64,000 bases of DNA from a phage: the sequence record PZ445527.1; one strand, 5' to 3'. The stretch's first letter is position 1. Each line of letters starts with the position of its first letter. Below, piece after piece: positions 23,282 to 57,049 of the stretch. Made by a program: the position numbers and the translations under genes. The notes below the pieces were generated by a model, which was not told the origin of the DNA, did no database searches, and worked only from the letters and a program-made list of their open reading frames with translations.

Positions 23282-23402
23282 ATTACCTCCATTAAGTCTT
23301 TTAAACTAACCTAATGTGGATGAATTTTGTTATACATATATTATGTACCTTTATACAGAAAAACCCCAGACTACTTATTCAATAGCTGGGGTTTGTTATT
23401 AA

Positions 23403-23714
23403 TCACAGATCGGGGCGCTTATCTTCTAAACAGTCCGAGCTAATATCTTCTCCGAATCCTACGAAGCCATCAAATTCATTTGAAATATCCGTAATCATTG
23501 CTTCCATTTTCCTAATCTCCGAGGTTTTCATCCCTGCTTTACTATTCTTAAAGTGTTTGCGAGGATTCCCGCACATCCAACAAGAACAGATACAAGGAGT
23601 AGTAGTGATAATACCTAACCGTTTAGGGCTTTCTTCATGCGGGAAGACTGTCCAATATTTCTTGCGGTTGTTCTTCACACGTTGCCGGTGATGACGTCTT
23701 AATGCTCGATCCAC
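23403..23714 (-). CDS. Cys-rich hypothetical protein 103 aa
   Basis: ORF track; CICSCWMCGNP cluster. Confidence 0.5.
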   Translation of the reverse strand: MDRALRRHHRQRVKNNRKKYWTVFPHEESPKRLGIITTTPCICSCWMCGNPRKHFKNSKAGMKTSEIRKMEAMITDISNEFDGFVGFGEDISSDCLEDKRPDL

Positions 23715-23795: not shown

Positions 23796-24164
23796 TTACA
23801 TCGCCTGAGTAAATGTACGACTAATAACGTCGTTCTGCTGTTCACGCGTCAGTGCGTTAAAACGCACAGCATAACCAGAAACACGAATGGTTAGCTGAGG
23901 ATATTTTTCAGGATGTTTCTGAGCATCCAAAAGCTGGTCACGACTTAACACATTGACATTTAGGTGTTGACCCCCTTCAATTTGAGGGGCGACTTCCACC
24001 TTGACTTCACGAAAGGATTCGGGGTCAAAGTGAGGTGTGATACCTTCTAGATCCTCAACTAGAACTTTTTGTTTAAGTTCACCATCTTTAGAGTATAATT
24101 GAATAATCTGATTATTATGAACAATATTAATTACGCCAGATTTAAGATTTTGATATGCTTTCAT
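23796..24164 (-). CDS. grcA: autonomous glycyl radical cofactor (GrcA/YfiD-like)
   Basis: C-terminal half closely matches remembered E. coli GrcA blocks ([30 protein letters not shown]). Confidence 0.8.
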
Positions 24165-24529
24165 TAGATCTCCCTGATGTTAGAATTTGGCTCAGCTTTT
24201 TGTTAACCCAGAAGCAAGATAAAAACTGGAAGGCAGGCTTGCTTTTCTCTTAACCACTAGGCTACTTTTGGGTGCTAGCATTCCGGTGAGATTGATGGTC
24301 TCGGTTAAGAAGAAAAACACGGGACTTCTGTTTTAACGTCGTGCTCCCGGATTGATGCGACTACGTGATTGCTCGCGCTAAGACAATGGCTATCTAAAGT
24401 CTTAGCTTCTACATTTATACTCCTGGATAGCATGGAGTTGCAGTCTACTTCCTGCTGTCACGCCCGGTCATTTATAGAATGTGGACTCTCTTCTCAGCAA
24501 GTTCTGGCACTATGGCCTGATCTTCTGTT

Positions 24530-24603
24530 TGGTAGTTAGTAGTGGAATCGAACCAGGTTCCACGGTTTACAAGACCGTTGCATCGCCAGCAATGCTTTAA
24601 GAG
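24530..24603 (-). ncRNA. tRNA-like remnant: anticodon arm with UGU (Thr-like) plus imperfect T-arm, no matching 5' acceptor strand
   Basis: acggt-cttgtaa-accgt arm with U33/A37, then GGTTCGATTCC-like loop and CCA; acceptor pairing not found. Confidence 0.3.
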
Positions 24604-24996
24604 CTATCGTTGTCTTGTTGAAACTCTATTTCTGGCCCTATGCGTAGAGGTCATAGAGTGGCAGTTAGGGCAGAGAATCTTTAGATTTTCTGGAGAACAG
24701 TTAGTTGCATCTCCATCTATATGATCTACCTCAGTTAAAACTGCTCCGTCAATTGGATGTTTCCCATCCCAACCACATACTTCACAAGCAGTACCACGAG
24801 TATCCCACAGCCACTTCCTAACAAAAGGTTTTAATTGTGCAGCTTTACCAGTATAACCAGGTTCTTCACCTGCCAGCCACTTTAATACTTTTTGCTTTGT
24901 CTGGTACTCCTGCTGACAAGCAGGACCACAATACTTACCTGCGGAACCTCTACTTTTAGGTTTTGTGATTCCGCAATTTAAACAAGTAAACTCCAT
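24604..24996 (-). CDS. HNH endonuclease 130 aa
   Basis: HNH core (HIDGD...N...NL..LCPNCH) with zinc-finger cysteines. Confidence 0.75.
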   Translation of the reverse strand: MEFTCLNCGITKPKSRGSAGKYCGPACQQEYQTKQKVLKWLAGEEPGYTGKAAQLKPFVRKWLWDTRGTACEVCGWDGKHPIDGAVLTEVDHIDGDATNCSPENLKILCPNCHSMTSTHRARNRVSTRQR

Positions 24997-25398: not shown

Positions 25399-25474
25399 TG
25401 GAGCGGCTAGAGGGAATCGAACCCTACTCAGCGAGGCTTGGAAGGCCTGCGACACAACCCGTGTGCTTAACCGC
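25399..25474 (-). tRNA. tRNA-Gly (anticodon UCC)
   Basis: Hand fold: 7-bp acceptor (one G-U), T-loop GGTTCGATTCC, anticodon loop CTTCCAA, encoded CCA. Confidence 0.55.
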
Positions 25475-25482
25475 TTATTGTT

Positions 25483-25560
25483 TGGCAGGGGATATTGGAT
25501 TTGAACCAATGATCTCGACTTCAAAGGCCGTTGTGCTAACCGTTACACTACTCTCCAATT
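25483..25560 (-). ncRNA. tRNA-like 3' fragment (canonical T-arm + acceptor 3' strand + CCA) without a pairing 5' acceptor strand
   Basis: ATTGG-TTCAAAT-CCAAT T-arm followed by atcccct-g-CCA; no complementary 5' strand within 100 nt. Confidence 0.3.
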
Positions 25561-25648
25561 GTTTGGCTGGAGTGCCTGATTCAATCCCAGGCACCTTCGG
25601 AGTCAGAGGCCGACGACTTGACAATTGATCTACACCTCAAGAATACTA

Positions 25649-27804: not shown

Positions 27805-27881
27805 TGGCGCGACTGATGGGATTTGAACCCACATTCCCTCCCGTGATAGGGGAGTACCATTACCAAGCCAGCCACGGTCGC
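27805..27881 (-). tRNA. tRNA with unusual anticodon loop CTATCAC (anticodon AUC if folded conventionally)
   Basis: Acceptor 6/7 bp + CCA, T-arm GTGGG-TTCAAAT-CCCAT, anticodon stem CTCCC/GGGAG; A34 is atypical. Confidence 0.5.
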
Positions 27882-47945: not shown

Positions 47946-48611
47946 ATGGTAAGAAAGAAAATAACTACAGAAGATGTGAACTTAGCACTTGCTCCCAGAG
48001 GAATAATTATGCTAAGCACGTATATATCAGCTAAATCCAATGCTATATTTAAGTGCTCTAATGGGCATAGTTGGGAGGCTAGAGTAGATAATGTAAAAGG
48101 TGGGAGAGGTTGCCCTTATTGTGCTAGTCGTACTTTAGATCTTAAAGAGGTAAATGAATCCTTAGCTGCTCGTGGAATAAAGATGGAAGGTAAATACATC
48201 AATTCTAAGAGTAAAATTATGTTCAGCTGTGAGAATGATCATAGGTGGGAGTCTACCCTTGATAGTGTTAGAAATCATAATTCTGGTTGTCCTATATGTT
48301 TATTAGAGAAGGATAATTATCCTACTAACGTATATATTTTAGTAAGTAGTATGGGAACCAAAATAGGGATGTCTAGCAGAACTAAAGATAGACTCAGAGA
48401 TATTAAAACTTCTTCTAACATACATGATTTAAAAATATTTAAGGAATATAGCTTTTCAGATAGATCAAAAGCTGTGCGTATTGAAAGAGAAGCCCATTTA
48501 CAGTTTAAGGAATATAATTGTCAGTACAAAGATTTTGATGGTGCTACAGAATTTTTTAGTATTGAGCCAGAAGTAGTAGCAAGGTTTATTGAGGAAATAA
48601 TTAATGAATAA
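47946..48611 (+). CDS. zinc-ribbon repeat + T5orf172 (GIY-YIG-related) domain protein 221 aa
   Basis: Two C..GH.W....G.GCP.C repeats (CSNGHSWEARVDNVKGGRGCPYC; CENDHRWESTLDSVRNHNSGCPIC) and a KIGMSSRTKDRLRDIKT segment. Confidence 0.6.
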   Translation: MVRKKITTEDVNLALAPRGIIMLSTYISAKSNAIFKCSNGHSWEARVDNVKGGRGCPYCASRTLDLKEVNESLAARGIKMEGKYINSKSKIMFSCENDHRWESTLDSVRNHNSGCPICLLEKDNYPTNVYILVSSMGTKIGMSSRTKDRLRDIKTSSNIHDLKIFKEYSFSDRSKAVRIEREAHLQFKEYNCQYKDFDGATEFFSIEPEVVARFIEEIINE

Positions 48612-50451
48612 AGATGAATTGATTAGAAACTGCAAAGAAATTATTGAGGGTTCTGCTGATGAAGAGCTTCTCTTTAATAATGCGAATAAACCCTCTGAGC
48701 GTTTCCCTACACAAAGGGATATGCTTGCAGGGGAATTGAGTAAATATCTGATTCTAGAAGAAATGCCAATTCAGATTCGAAATGCTCATATGATTGGAGA
48801 TATTCATTTCCATGATGCTGACTATGCTGCATTAGGCATGACTAACTGTTGCCTAGTAGCCCTGGAAGATATGTTGAAAAATGGTATGAAAGTTGGTAAT
48901 GCTGAAATTAGTACACCAAATTCTATTACTACTGCGGCGGCTATTACTGCTCAGATTATCACTCAGGTTAGCTCCCATCAGTATGGTGGTACTTCTGTAG
49001 ATCGCCTTGATGAAGTATTAGCCCCTTATGTTCGTAAGTCCTATGATAAAAATCATGCGTTTGCAAAACGTTGGACTAAGGATGAAGCTAAAGCATCTGT
49101 AATGGCTACGGAGATGACTGAAAAAGAAGTCTATGACGCTTGCCAGGGTTTAGAATATGAAATCAATACCATGTTCAACTCTAACGGTCAGAGTCCATTT
49201 ATTACCTTTGGTTTTGGTCTAGGAACTTCTTGGGAAGCACGTCTAGTACAGAAAGCAATACTGAAAGTACGCATGGATGGTTTAGGTATCAATAAACGTA
49301 CAGCTATCTTCCCGAAACTGGTATTTGTACTTCGTGATGGCGTAAATATGAAACCAGGGGATGTTAATTATGACATCAAGAAGTTAGCTATGAAATGTAC
49401 TGCTGAACGTATGTATCCAGATTATATCAGCTATGATAAGGTTGTGGAAGTTACTGGAGACTATAAAGTTTCTATGGGCTGCCGTTCATTCCTAGCTGCT
49501 GCAGAAGATGGTGAAACTGCCGGTCGTAATAACTTAGGTGTTGTTTCTGTAAACTTGCCTAGAATTGCTATCGAAGCTGAAGGAAATATTGACCTATTCT
49601 TTGATTTGCTTGAGCTACGTGTAGATACAGCATTAAAAGCGTTGGAGTGGAGAGTTGATCGCTTAAAATACATTCAAGCTAAAGCTGCACCCATCCTCTA
49701 TATGTCAGGAGCCTTTGGATTACGCTTAGGGCCTGATGAATATGTATTCGATCATTTCTATAACCGTGCTTCTGTATCTCTAGGGTATATTGGTTGCCAT
49801 GAAATGCTACAGTTCATGTTTGGCAAAGATGTAGACACAATGTCCGAGACCTGCATCAAGTTTGTTCAGCGTGTATTGCAGTACATGCGGGATAGAGTCG
49901 ATCAGAAGAAGGAAGAAACTAAGTTAGGTTATAGCCTGTATGCTACACCATCAGAGTCCCTATGTGATCGCTTTTGTCGTCTAGACCGTGAATATTTCCC
50001 GGAGCATGAAGATATTCTGTCCAAAGGATACTACACTAACTCTCACCACCTTGATGTGGAACGTAAAGTTGCCCCTAACGTGAAATTTGATTATGAATCT
50101 AACTTTACTCCGATTGCTTCTGGTGGGTGTATCTCTTATGTAGAACTACCAGATATGAAACGATTCCCGGATGCACTGGAATGGGTTATTAATTATGCTG
50201 CTAGTAAGGTTCATTACTTCGGTATTAATACTCCAGTGGATTCCTGTGGTAAATGTGGATTCTTAGGTGAAACAGTAGCATCCGAAGATGGATTCAAGTG
50301 CCCTATCTGTGGTAATCATGACCCTGAAACTCTTGAAGTAACTCGTCGAGTTTGTGGGTATCTTGGAAATCCAGGTGCTCGTCCGTTTAACCCAGGAAAA
50401 CAACATGAGGTTATGGGCAGGGTGAAACATCAGGATATTCGAGCTAAATAA
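48604..50451 (+). CDS. nrdD: anaerobic ribonucleoside-triphosphate reductase (NrdD) 615 aa
   Basis: C-terminal glycyl-radical motif RVCGYLG and Zn site CPICGN; size. Confidence 0.9.
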   Translation: MNKDELIRNCKEIIEGSADEELLFNNANKPSERFPTQRDMLAGELSKYLILEEMPIQIRNAHMIGDIHFHDADYAALGMTNCCLVALEDMLKNGMKVGNAEISTPNSITTAAAITAQIITQVSSHQYGGTSVDRLDEVLAPYVRKSYDKNHAFAKRWTKDEAKASVMATEMTEKEVYDACQGLEYEINTMFNSNGQSPFITFGFGLGTSWEARLVQKAILKVRMDGLGINKRTAIFPKLVFVLRDGVNMKPGDVNYDIKKLAMKCTAERMYPDYISYDKVVEVTGDYKVSMGCRSFLAAAEDGETAGRNNLGVVSVNLPRIAIEAEGNIDLFFDLLELRVDTALKALEWRVDRLKYIQAKAAPILYMSGAFGLRLGPDEYVFDHFYNRASVSLGYIGCHEMLQFMFGKDVDTMSETCIKFVQRVLQYMRDRVDQKKEETKLGYSLYATPSESLCDRFCRLDREYFPEHEDILSKGYYTNSHHLDVERKVAPNVKFDYESNFTPIASGGCISYVELPDMKRFPDALEWVINYAASKVHYFGINTPVDSCGKCGFLGETVASEDGFKCPICGNHDPETLEVTRRVCGYLGNPGARPFNPGKQHEVMGRVKHQDIRAK

Positions 50452-53665: not shown

Positions 53666-54259
53666 ATTTATATTGAATTGAGAGACATTAGTAAAAATTG
53701 ATTTTGCTAATTTTTCTTAGTGAAGCTGACAAGGGATTTACGGCGAGAGGAATCGATGACCCGTAAATAGCTGCATAAGGTACGTTGCTAGAGCTTTACG
53801 AAAAAGTTTTTTCTTGTTTACAATCCGCGATACGGAACAGTTAGGCTGCCCCATTAAGGGTTGTTTTAACTATTACTAGTGTTTATATTGCATTAGTTAA
53901 TCTTCAATTAAGTGATCTGTGTACCCTGAATTCGGAAAGGTAAATCCAAACCGTGCATATTTAGCTCGTTATATAGGCAGAGTTTTATATGGGGGTGCGA
54001 ACGAAAAGAGCAGCGAATGGCGGCACGTACAGTAGTCACCTACCAATAGGATAGTGAGGACAAATAGAATCGGCTTAGCGGCCAATGACCTAGGTTCTAT
54101 TCTGTATATGAGCGAAGAGAGCACAGCACTGAGATATGATAACTTATTCATATTGTTTGATGATAATTGATGTTTACGTAAATAGTAGTAATAGTTGTTC
54201 TATTCTTTCTGAATAGTCCTAAAGAAAAGATTTCGATTAACCAACACAGGAGTATTATT

Positions 54260-57049
54260 GTGTTTTCTATCCTCCAAGGTCACGCCGGGTTTTCTCGTGA
54301 TTTAGCAACAGGTATTTGGCGAGAAATCAAAGCGGAAGATTATACCTTTGCCAAGCGATTCTCGAAAGAGCATCCAGAAGGTAAACCAGCTTCTATGCCC
54401 TTCAAATTTGATGTAATAGAAGAGCACGACCCACAAAGCCTTGCAGAAATGTTACCACTTATGAGACGTTTAACGTCTGACCCTCATATCGTTGCGGTAC
54501 GAGGTCGATGTCTTGCACCTAAAAATAATGTGCGACGTAAGAAAGATAACTTTAATGTATCTAATCCTAGTAATATTATTGCTATGGACGTGGATGGTAT
54601 CCTAGATACCGGTGGGTACGACAAATTTAACCTTGTTGGTATGGCCCGCCACATTATTAAGATGTTGAATAGTATTAGTGAGGATATGTTTCCTCTTGAT
54701 GCAGGCTTTATAGCTCATGCATCGTCTTCGGCTGGGCTAAAACCAGGTATCCGAATGCACTTAATGCTAGAATCTAACGTCAAGGTAACTCAGGGTCAGC
54801 TAAAGTTCTTATTTACATCTATCAATGATAGTAGTAAGCAAAAATTTGGTTTTGATATTGCCGACCTAGCTTATTATTCATCTGTCCAGCTCCACTATTT
54901 TGCCAACCCCTTATTTAGCGATGGTATTGTTGATCCGTTTAAAGCGGAGAGTAAGCCACGTCTGGTGTATGTTAAAGGTTCGAAAGTAAATTTGCCCAAT
55001 AATCTGGTTGACTATGAAACAACTAGAGGGGAGTTTAAAGAGGAATTCTACTCTTTACTCGATCAAATTAAAGGCAAAAAGATTGCTTCCGATAAAGTAG
55101 AAGAAACCATTAGCGAGTTAGAAGAGGCTGATGATGGAGTGTACTTGCGTATTATCCCCAAACTATACCATAGAGCATTAGAGGATGGTGTTGATTTTGA
55201 ATGGCTAGAACGTGAGATTAAACCAGCTTTATCTGAATATATTGCAACTAAAGATAACAGCCGTAATATTCAAGATTACTTTAATAACGGTCGTAAGCAG
55301 GCTCTCAAAGCGTTTGTTAATAATTCTAAACGTGAGATTCCATTAAATCTGAAAGGTGTTCCACTTAAGAAATTAGAAGTGGATTCTCCACCAGAAGTTC
55401 CATACCTGAAGATTAACATTGTGCCCCCAAAAGGCCATATAACATTTGTTAAGGCAAGTCTTGGTACTGGTAAAACTACGGCAGTAACTAAATGGCTGGA
55501 CGCAGGTGTTCTTCCGGGCAACTTTTTAGCAGTTACAAATACTAGAGCACTGGTATCTTCAAATGCTAAGAAATTTAGTGCAGGACAATATGATAAGTCT
55601 GTAGATATGCTTAATTTTAAACGTGGAGCTATTGATCGTATGTCCACAACTATTCACTCTTTACATAAGTTCAAAAGTTTTATTGGGCAAATAGACACCA
55701 TTTTTATTGATGAATGTGACGCTGTAATGAATGACCTATTATTCGCCCCAGTTGTTAAGCAACGTCGCGAGTGTATTCAAGTTCTACGTGACATCCTCAT
55801 GACAGCTAAGACTGTAATCTTATCCGATGGTGATATTAGTGCGGAAACAATTGAAGCATATGGTTCTTTGATTGAGTTCGATAAACCAGTTGCATTCTAT
55901 AATCATCACCGTAAGATGCTGTCAAAAGCTCATGCTTATGAGTTCCCTGATGAATCTAGTATTTGGGTTGCACTTCAGACCTCTCTAGAGATGGGTGAGA
56001 AATCTATTCTGGTATCTGATTGTGGGCCGGATGAACTGAATGAGAAGGGCATGGCGTTGCGTCGTAATACGGGTGCGTTAGTTAAGGAAATCCACTCAAA
56101 CTCTACGTCTGATGTAGATATTCGACGTATTCTGGATTACACAACTAATGAGTTAATTGACCAACAAATTGATTGCTTATTATGTAGTCCATCCGTAACG
56201 AGTGGTGTTGACTTCAACTATTTTGATAACGTATTCGTTATTACTAGAACCTCAAACCAAGCGCCAAACATGCGTTTTCAAGCAATCAGGCGCGACCGTG
56301 GTGCTCAGAATATCTATTATTTTATTGATAAATCCACTAGTGGGTTCTCTGCAGGTTCTGAACAATATAATATTGATGAAGGTTGGCTGGAGTTAGCACA
56401 GCAATTATACGCACGTCGCAGAGAGCTGGAATCTAGGAACTATACTAGTACTTTACGTTATTATTTGCTTGATCAGGGTGCAACTATTGATATTTTCAGC
56501 GAAAGCTGGGGAACTATTGAAGGTGCTGGTAAAGAGTACACAGAAGAGCGAATCAAAGCTATTCTGCACTCAACTCCTGATTATTGTGCTCCACGTCATG
56601 CGGATGCGTATGAAGCTAAACTACTTCTTGTCCGCTATTATCATCTTGAGTCTATTAAAGATGTAACAGTTGAGCATGTTGAACAATATATCAAAGATAA
56701 GCCGAATGATCGAGCTGCATTCTTCCATAAGATGCACGAGATGTTCTGGGAAGATATTAAGAAGTGTTCAAATGTGACCATTAAACCATTCATAGAAGCT
56801 CTGAAGGGTAAGAAGAAGGACTTCTTCCTTAAAACAGGTCAGAGTGCTAACCCAAAATATGCTAGAATGTATCTTGGTATGATGGGTATTGGTAAGGATA
56901 TGAACACTGAAAATATTGTAGACTGGTACAGAACCTATTGTAAAATCGAGTGTATGCCAATTCCTTTCAAATTCATGACAGAGGAAGAGAAGGCTATGGC
57001 AGAAGAAGTAATGTCAGAGCTAGGTGCTAGAAATGACAGTGAAGAATAA
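54260..57049 (+). CDS. Walker A/B NTPase, helicase-like; possible replication origin-binding protein 929 aa
   Basis: Walker A (VKASLGTGKTTAV), Walker B (IFIDECDAV); GTG start with ACAGGAG SD. Confidence 0.65.
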   Translation: MFSILQGHAGFSRDLATGIWREIKAEDYTFAKRFSKEHPEGKPASMPFKFDVIEEHDPQSLAEMLPLMRRLTSDPHIVAVRGRCLAPKNNVRRKKDNFNVSNPSNIIAMDVDGILDTGGYDKFNLVGMARHIIKMLNSISEDMFPLDAGFIAHASSSAGLKPGIRMHLMLESNVKVTQGQLKFLFTSINDSSKQKFGFDIADLAYYSSVQLHYFANPLFSDGIVDPFKAESKPRLVYVKGSKVNLPNNLVDYETTRGEFKEEFYSLLDQIKGKKIASDKVEETISELEEADDGVYLRIIPKLYHRALEDGVDFEWLEREIKPALSEYIATKDNSRNIQDYFNNGRKQALKAFVNNSKREIPLNLKGVPLKKLEVDSPPEVPYLKINIVPPKGHITFVKASLGTGKTTAVTKWLDAGVLPGNFLAVTNTRALVSSNAKKFSAGQYDKSVDMLNFKRGAIDRMSTTIHSLHKFKSFIGQIDTIFIDECDAVMNDLLFAPVVKQRRECIQVLRDILMTAKTVILSDGDISAETIEAYGSLIEFDKPVAFYNHHRKMLSKAHAYEFPDESSIWVALQTSLEMGEKSILVSDCGPDELNEKGMALRRNTGALVKEIHSNSTSDVDIRRILDYTTNELIDQQIDCLLCSPSVTSGVDFNYFDNVFVITRTSNQAPNMRFQAIRRDRGAQNIYYFIDKSTSGFSAGSEQYNIDEGWLELAQQLYARRRELESRNYTSTLRYYLLDQGATIDIFSESWGTIEGAGKEYTEERIKAILHSTPDYCAPRHADAYEAKLLLVRYYHLESIKDVTVEHVEQYIKDKPNDRAAFFHKMHEMFWEDIKKCSNVTIKPFIEALKGKKKDFFLKTGQSANPKYARMYLGMMGIGKDMNTENIVDWYRTYCKIECMPIPFKFMTEEEKAMAEEVMSELGARNDSEE

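Follow-up and report, generated by a model that had tools for sequence, protein, structure and literature searches.

The grcA-like gene and its surroundings

The window (the whole stretch of DNA that was analyzed, 64,000 nt of record PZ445527.1) belongs to a T5-like siphophage (Demerecviridae, Tequintavirus-like). The left 25 kb align with T5 over 87% of their length, at about 92% identity. The gene under study is an ORF of 369 nt that starts with ATG and ends, after 122 codons, with TAA. The earlier note had located this ORF and its RVSGYAVRF motif correctly; the strand, which was left out there, is minus. With a Shine-Dalgarno element, a start and a stop of its own, the 122-aa product has the size of a small stand-alone protein (ca. 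120–130 aa). It is 100% identical to T5.056 of phage T5 (YP_006884.1). As T5.056, this very protein is already deposited and annotated in GenBank and RefSeq, and it is therefore not new. All coordinates are collected in Table 1.

Table 1. Features of the window treated in the text, with positions counted from its first nucleotide.
Feature	Position	Strand	Basis
grcA-like gene, protein identical to T5.056	23796..24164	-	ORF list and sequence; Pfam, NCBIfam, PHROG and PDB matches
Shine-Dalgarno AGGGAG, 5 nt 5' of the ATG	24170..24175	-	read in the sequence
C-terminal glycyl-radical domain, residues 61–122	23799..23984	-	phmmer alignment with PflB 698–759 and GrcA 66–127
GGT codon of Gly97, predicted radical site in R94-V95-S96-G97-Y98-A99-V100	23874..23876	-	alignments
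N-terminal half, residues 1–60, putative diverged counterpart of the GrcA N-terminal region	23985..24164	-	multiple alignment; Gln5 conserved
T5.055-type gene, 103 aa, 3' neighbor of the grcA-like gene	23403..23714	-	PHROG 4499/6828, function unknown
Rho-independent terminator hairpin AAACCCCAGC…GUCUGGGGUUUUU, ends the grcA and T5.055-like unit	~23356..23394	-	fold z-score -4.36
Degenerate tRNA-Thr-like sequence	24534..24604		24.5 bits
HNH endonuclease gene, 130 aa	24604..24996		
tRNA-like match	25402..25475	-	sub-threshold
tRNA-Gln	25483..25557		
tRNA-like match	25567..25639	-	sub-threshold
tRNA-Asp, anticodon ATC	27805..27881	-	ARAGORN
NrdA ORF, 1150 aa	43176..46628	-	
ORF of 221 aa	47946..48611	+	DUF4379 treble-clef zinc finger and T5orf172/MUG113 domain
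nrdD	48604..50451	+	Pfam NRDD 5.1e-172 and Gly_radical
Sir2-family protein, 279 aa	51212..52051	+	Pfam SIR2, 2e-24

The 3' neighbors of the gene are those of T5.056 in T5: a homologue of T5.055, followed by the region of the terminator and promoter P10a. The T5.055-type gene thus lies between the grcA-like gene and the terminator. The hairpin is identical in the window and T5, and the region in which it stands, which holds the annotated terminator and P10a of T5, is 97% identical overall. A strict-pattern terminator scan around the grcA-like gene returned none; the terminator was recovered by folding and by alignment with T5. A scan for consensus promoters around the gene was uninformative (four promoter-like sites, compared to 5.6 expected). 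The corresponding T5 unit, within the early region, starts at promoter P11 and extends across tRNA genes to T5.056 and T5.055.

The T5.055-type protein has a basic N-terminus, a CxCxCxxCGNPRK cysteine cluster (TPCICSCWMCGNPRK) and an acidic tail. It is found in T5-like phages, some Erwinia jumbo phages and some Rhizobium phages, and no T4-like phage in the sampled listing carries it. Because it has the sole in-frame CX3CX2C motif, this Cys-rich protein was considered as a mini-activase or partner of the grcA product, and it was set aside: a Pfam search of its 103 residues returned no match, and its PHROGs are of unknown function. It is too short to hold a radical-SAM core (NrdG has 154–156 aa), and its basic and acidic ends and its phage distribution were further reasons. 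The gene is given here as context only, and no functional partnership with the grcA-like gene is claimed.

Upstream, the window differs from T5. Similarity to T5 ends at the Shine-Dalgarno element, and the DNA from 24165 to 24996 is mosaic. The segment that in T5 carries tRNA-Met, T5.057 and tRNA-Ile is swapped for a 376-nt variant; beyond this variant are the tRNA-Thr-like sequence and the HNH endonuclease gene, arranged as in HdH2. The 376-nt variant is common to about 149 other T5-like phages, mostly of Salmonella, in which it is annotated “tRNA-Met / hypothetical protein”; ARAGORN made no tRNA call in it. The tRNA-Thr-like sequence that abuts the HNH gene scored below the gathering score of 29. 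Farther upstream, the window's tRNA-Gln is flanked by two tRNA-like matches that were also sub-threshold (tRNA-Sec model, 30.9 bits; tRNA, 20 bits); the annotations of T5 and HdH2 have a tRNA-Gly and a second, possibly pseudogenic, tRNA-Gln nearby. The tRNA-Asp called by ARAGORN has the anticodon ATC, compared to tRNA-Asp(GUC) in the T5 cluster, which may reflect a true change of anticodon or a discrepancy between the two calls.

The region of the grcA-like gene matches HdH2, Bf23, slur09 and hundreds of other T5-like phages of Salmonella and Escherichia. None of the 17 nucleotide differences from T5, and none of the 20 from HdH2, changes an amino acid; compared to Bf23, 11 codon differences are synonymous and three are non-synonymous. 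By these counts, purifying selection on the gene is strong. In tblastn searches, homologues were present in 1,584 phage records: ca. 437 at 80% identity or more (T5-like phages), and ca. 1,150 more distant. The distant group comprised, among others, jumbo phages, Vibrio phages and T4-like phages, in which the gene is vs.6 (ca. 52% identity along the full length). In a large protein database, T5-like proteins ranked first, followed by other phage GrcAs and then by bacterial GrcAs (Vibrio, Aeromonas, Photobacterium). At the DNA level, the best match in all of 5,426 E. coli genomes was the 3' segment of pflB, with 74.7% identity over 186 nt to the pflB 3' end; only the 3' half of the phage gene is host-like. 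The median number of DNA matches per E. coli genome was three.

The glycyl-radical domain and the N-terminal half

The proposal that the C-terminal part of the product is a glycyl-radical domain like that of GrcA/YfiD was borne out by comparison with GrcA and with the C-termini of pyruvate formate-lyases (PFL), in which similarity was significant and far above chance. Pfam PF01228 (Gly_radical) matched residues 62–103 (E = 3.6e-18; 66.5 bits, with a gathering cutoff of 22.2). The best match among solved structures was PDB 6owr, E. coli GrcA/YfiD (E = 1.6e-30), and PDB 1cm5/1h16 (PflB residues 698–759) matched with E = 4.6e-27. Among the NCBIfam models, the GrcA model TIGR04365 ranked first (2.5e-35, 121.5 bits), followed by GrcA3, GrcA2 and formate C-acetyltransferase. 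The TIGR04365 score is below its equivalog cutoff of 170 bits, with residues 50–122 alone aligned, and the scores of the other three models were likewise under their curated cutoffs. PHROG 1209, whose function is given as “unknown”, was matched over the full length (5.8e-48). On these profile comparisons, the protein is best treated as belonging to a phage subfamily of the GrcA kind (PHROG 1209), not as a strict equivalog of the bacterial protein. Every test supported the identification of the product as a phage-encoded, GrcA/YfiD-like autonomous glycyl-radical cofactor.

Gly97 aligned with Gly102 of GrcA and Gly734 of PflB (numbering of the radical sites as in PMC12338860), and this column was invariant in the alignments. 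The radical-loop sequence is exactly that of PflB and GrcA, and the glycine and the entire surrounding loop were invariant in the sampled phage and bacterial homologues. Across T5, T4, GrcA and PflB, 44 columns were invariant; the number was 37–44 over the sampled alignments of phage and bacterial homologues. Over its last 61 residues, the window protein shares 78.7% identity with E. coli GrcA, 80.3% with PflB and 78.7% with Vs.6 of T4. At the 13 positions of the radical domain at which GrcA and PflB differ, it has the GrcA residue in three cases, the PflB residue in four and neither in six.

In T4, Vs.6 (also called Y06I) is a stand-alone protein of similar length (120 vs. 122 aa) that also belongs to PHROG 1209, and it aligned with the window protein over the full length, including the MKAYQ start (53% identity, E = 2e-39). 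However, the radical domain of Vs.6 is a near-copy of that of E. coli GrcA (96.7% identity, 59 of the last 61 residues), whereas the T5-type domain is about equally distant (79–80%) from GrcA, PflB and Vs.6. The window protein shares with E. coli GrcA (b2579) a two-part architecture (122 vs. 127 aa) and an identical radical loop. With PflB it shares the C-terminal segment 698–759, but it is without the catalytic barrel of about 700 residues that bears Cys418 and Cys419, and it is thus not a formate acetyltransferase. Consistent with this, the model for full-length pyruvate formate-lyase, TIGR01255, scored 86 bits against a cutoff of 994 and matched at profile positions 683–744 of 744 only.

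The N-terminal half is less conserved. In the BLASTP alignment with E. coli GrcA, which began at residue 51 (74% identity over residues 51–122), none of the N-terminal ca. 50 residues was aligned. Because TIGR04365 scored below its cutoff over the C-terminal part alone, this half differs substantially from that of E. coli GrcA. In an alignment of 15 sequences (T5-like, T4, jumbo-phage, Vibrio, Aeromonas and E. coli), a weak common pattern was present at the N-terminus: an (A/G)xQ start in which Gln5 was invariant. Some bacterial GrcAs (Vibrio) covered 86% of the window protein. Because of the weak shared pattern with its invariant Gln5, the N-terminal half is read as a putative diverged GrcA N-terminus and not as a separate domain.

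An AlphaFold2 model of the protein was built on an alignment of 30 sequences (mean pLDDT 75). It featured beta strands in residues 2–54 (pLDDT ca. 78–85), a low-confidence linker at residues 60–72, and a helix/hairpin/helix arrangement in the radical domain. When the model was submitted to Foldseek, its C-terminal half alone found matches: the NMR structure of YfiD, 6owr (TM-score 0.75, target-normalized; 80% identity), and PFL (2pfl/1cm5). The N-terminal half is thus predicted to be beta-structured here (pLDDT ca. 80), whereas residues 1–60 of YfiD were reported to be disordered in solution by NMR (PMC8683613). The predicted strands are worth noting, but a prediction cannot settle the matter against the NMR result. 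The N-terminal half is described as important for binding to cleaved PFL and for activation (PMC8683613).

NrdD and the search for an activase

The window also encodes the glycyl-radical enzyme NrdD, as had been claimed. At its C-terminus (…CGKCG…CPICG…TRRVCGYLGNP…) is the whole radical domain of a class III enzyme, including a CxxC…CxxC zinc ribbon. BLASTP of the small protein against NrdD gave no significant similarity (E = 5.1). A spare-part role for NrdD is therefore without support in the sequences, and the earlier suggestion that the small protein might serve another glycyl-radical enzyme is not supported for NrdD, which has a complete radical domain of its own.

An NrdG activase was not visible in the window, in agreement with the earlier note. 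Three tblastn queries were run against the window, the NrdG proteins of T4 and E. coli and the PflA of E. coli; the lowest E-value was 0.12. In a scan of all window ORFs of at least 60 aa for CxxxCxxC, the sole carrier was the 103-aa ORF, which is too short for a radical-SAM enzyme. No activase is annotated in the full annotation of the complete T5 genome. A degenerate DNA pattern for CX3CX2C had 19 matches in complete T5, the frames of which were checked by hand. It was in frame with an annotated gene only in T5.055; of the others, six contained stop codons, six were out of frame and six were antisense to annotated genes. Because complete T5 is also without an activase gene, the absence is not an effect of the window's edges. 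T4, unlike the T5-like phages, carries nrdG and thus has an NrdG activase of its own. Since the phage has no activase in the window or in T5, host activases would be used, and we infer that T5-like phages rely on host PflA for the GrcA-type protein and on host NrdG for NrdD. In E. coli, pflA is adjacent to pflB.

Several differences from T5 were noted around the reductase genes. The window NrdD ORF has 615 aa, compared to 574 aa for the annotated nrdD of T5 (53961..55685). The window has a different sequence in place of the first 14 residues of T5 NrdD, but this N-terminal difference does not account for the discrepancy; the annotated T5 nrdD may be shorter at its C-terminal end or internally different. 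Directly 5' of nrdD, and overlapping its start, is the 221-aa ORF, a probable homing endonuclease; at the corresponding site, T5 carries promoters only. The Sir2-family gene is located 3' of nrdD, as in T5 (T5.102). The NrdA ORF has 1150 aa vs. 811 aa in T5, with an insert of about 339 aa between T5 residues 478 and 479, in the catalytic motif …MTNL|CVEITQP. The insert begins with Cys, the sequence after it resumes with Cys, and Pfam LAGLIDADG_3 matched at residues 672–758. This class Ia ribonucleotide reductase seems to be interrupted by an intein that contains a homing endonuclease.

A probable role in the repair of host pyruvate formate-lyase

Two relatives of the window protein are reported to act on PFL. 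According to PMC8683613, which cites Wagner et al. 2001, T4 Y06I and E. coli YfiD are spare parts of about 14 kDa that receive their radical from PFL activase, and a complex of either with oxygen-cleaved PFL restores activity. As of 2021, these two were the only validated cases of spare-part proteins (PMC8683613), and a review of 2026 states that such proteins are known for formate lyases only (PMC13450708). The radical is transferred from Gly102 of GrcA to Cys419 of PflB (PMC12338860).

The reading that we prefer, with a probability of roughly 0.8, is that the GrcA-like protein is activated by host PflA and replaces the C-terminus of PflB that oxygen has cleaved off. Repair of host PFL had been put forward in the earlier note, and it is favored here because this activity was reported for the T4 homologue, Y06I/vs.6 (PMC8683613). 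The grcA-like gene is an early gene beside the tRNA cluster, in the early region of the T5-like phage. In the proposed mechanism, which would operate in an anaerobic or microaerobic host, PflA, a radical-SAM enzyme, would abstract hydrogen from Gly97, the glycine of the RVSGYAV loop. Where oxygen had cleaved host PflB at Gly734, residues 61–122 of the phage protein would dock in the place of the lost C-terminus. The phage glycyl radical would then regenerate the thiyl radical at Cys419 of PflB, so that pyruvate could again be converted to acetyl-CoA and formate. The fermentative energy supply would thereby be sustained during infection.

Because the loop is identical and the domain is 79–80% identical, a mechanism like that of YfiD/Y06I is the one best supported for the window protein. 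The use of host PflA is in keeping with the lack of a phage activase, and it is the arrangement of the T4 Y06I experiments. The present analysis shows what the domain is, that its radical motif is conserved, that the gene is under purifying selection and widespread among phages, and that a phage activase is lacking; activation by PFL-AE and the rescue of cleaved PFL are drawn from the literature on the homologues YfiD and Y06I (PMC8683613; PMC13450708). That the T5-type protein works as these do, and that the phage benefits, is what we infer from the two together. A literature search for work on the T5-type protein, or on phage GrcA in infection, returned nothing relevant. The T4 reports cited describe biochemical reconstitution, and no test of a benefit to the phage was found for any phage.

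The alternatives differ in what the radical domain would be for. If the small protein instead supplied the phage NrdD with a radical, or with a replacement radical domain, it would offset the missing NrdG; such a role is brought to mind by the presence of NrdD without NrdG, by the Gly_radical match that both proteins have in Pfam, and by the label “ribonucleotide reductase subunit” in some records. We consider it very unlikely. The small protein is 80% identical to the C-terminus of PflB instead of resembling NrdD (BLASTP, E = 5.1), NrdD has an intact loop (RRVCGYLGNP, unlike RVSGYAVRF) and a zinc ribbon of its own, the two genes are about 24 kb apart on opposite strands in separate transcription units, a spare radical domain cannot replace an activase, and the restriction of known spare parts to formate lyases (PMC13450708) also speaks against it. 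The small chance that the protein is a decoy or inhibitor, soaking up PflA or occupying PflB and thereby redirecting pyruvate flux or stopping fermentation, is owed to the features that are specific to the phage lineage: the N-terminal half, which governs binding to cleaved PFL (PMC8683613), and the six of 13 GrcA/PflB-discriminating positions. The computed results would fit a productive and a non-productive complex alike. However, the radical glycine and the loop, which are invariant in the sampled homologues, would be superfluous in a pure blocker, and the T4 homologue was reported to restore PFL activity, not to inhibit it (PMC8683613). Least probable of all, and hardly credible, is that the 3' end of a host gene, pflB or grcA, was captured and survives as a remnant without function. 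It is true that the 3' half alone resembles host DNA (74.7% to the pflB 3' end over 186 nt), but the reading frame is intact behind a good Shine-Dalgarno element, and hundreds of T5-like phages retain the gene, as do T4-like, jumbo and Vibrio phages. Because the substitutions are synonymous (17 of 17 with T5, 20 of 20 with HdH2), as under purifying selection, a decaying remnant is ruled out.

A different host enzyme, the 2-ketobutyrate formate-lyase TdcE, may be the main or an additional target, though we regard this as unlikely. Of the median three DNA matches per E. coli genome, pflB is the best and grcA must be another; the third is presumably tdcE. In addition, several records label the phage gene “2-ketobutyrate formate-lyase”, and the window protein stands at much the same distance from GrcA as from PflB. 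Action on TdcE would be compatible with the PflB model and does not exclude it, but TdcE is a conditionally expressed paralogue, whereas PFL is constitutive and central to anaerobic primary metabolism (PMC8683613). There is finally a slim chance that the T5-type protein is a variant of the phage lineage whose distinct N-terminal beta domain, if folded as predicted, and lineage-specific radical-domain substitutions alter its behavior, such that it controls host glycyl-radical chemistry; it might, for example, engage intact PflB or TdcE, or cooperate with the co-transcribed T5.055-type protein. Nothing computed supports this specifically. If it were true, a phage without an activase would be controlling the glycyl-radical chemistry of its host.

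Repair of PflB thus remains our preferred reading, and the remaining probability is attached to the diverged N-terminal half and to alternative targets such as TdcE. Because T5 degrades host DNA early, PflB and PflA must pre-exist, and any benefit would be confined to hosts that are already fermenting. The strict purifying selection on the gene suggests that the phage does benefit from its GrcA, probably in the gut, where oxygen fluctuates. T5-like phages keep two glycyl-radical proteins, NrdD and GrcA, without an activase, so that both must depend on the host, through NrdG and PflA, respectively.

The identification is itself already known: in many T5-like genomes the product is named as a glycyl radical cofactor, and the description of the T4 homologue dates from 2001. 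RefSeq calls T4 vs.6 (NP_049730) “autonomous glycyl radical cofactor GrcA”. T5.056 is annotated as “putative acetyltransferase-related protein”, by its match to InterPro IPR001150. Orthologues in relatives are labeled “grcA: autonomous glycyl radical cofactor”, “glycyl radical cofactor”, “pyruvate formate-lyase”, “2-ketobutyrate formate-lyase”, “acetyltransferase”, “ribonucleotide reductase subunit” and “hypothetical protein”. The label pyruvate formate-lyase (formate C-acetyltransferase) was rejected for a protein of 122 aa, compared to an enzyme of about 760 aa with its Cys418/Cys419 barrel. The wrong labels (lyases, acetyltransferase, reductase subunit, hypothetical) could give way to a single name.
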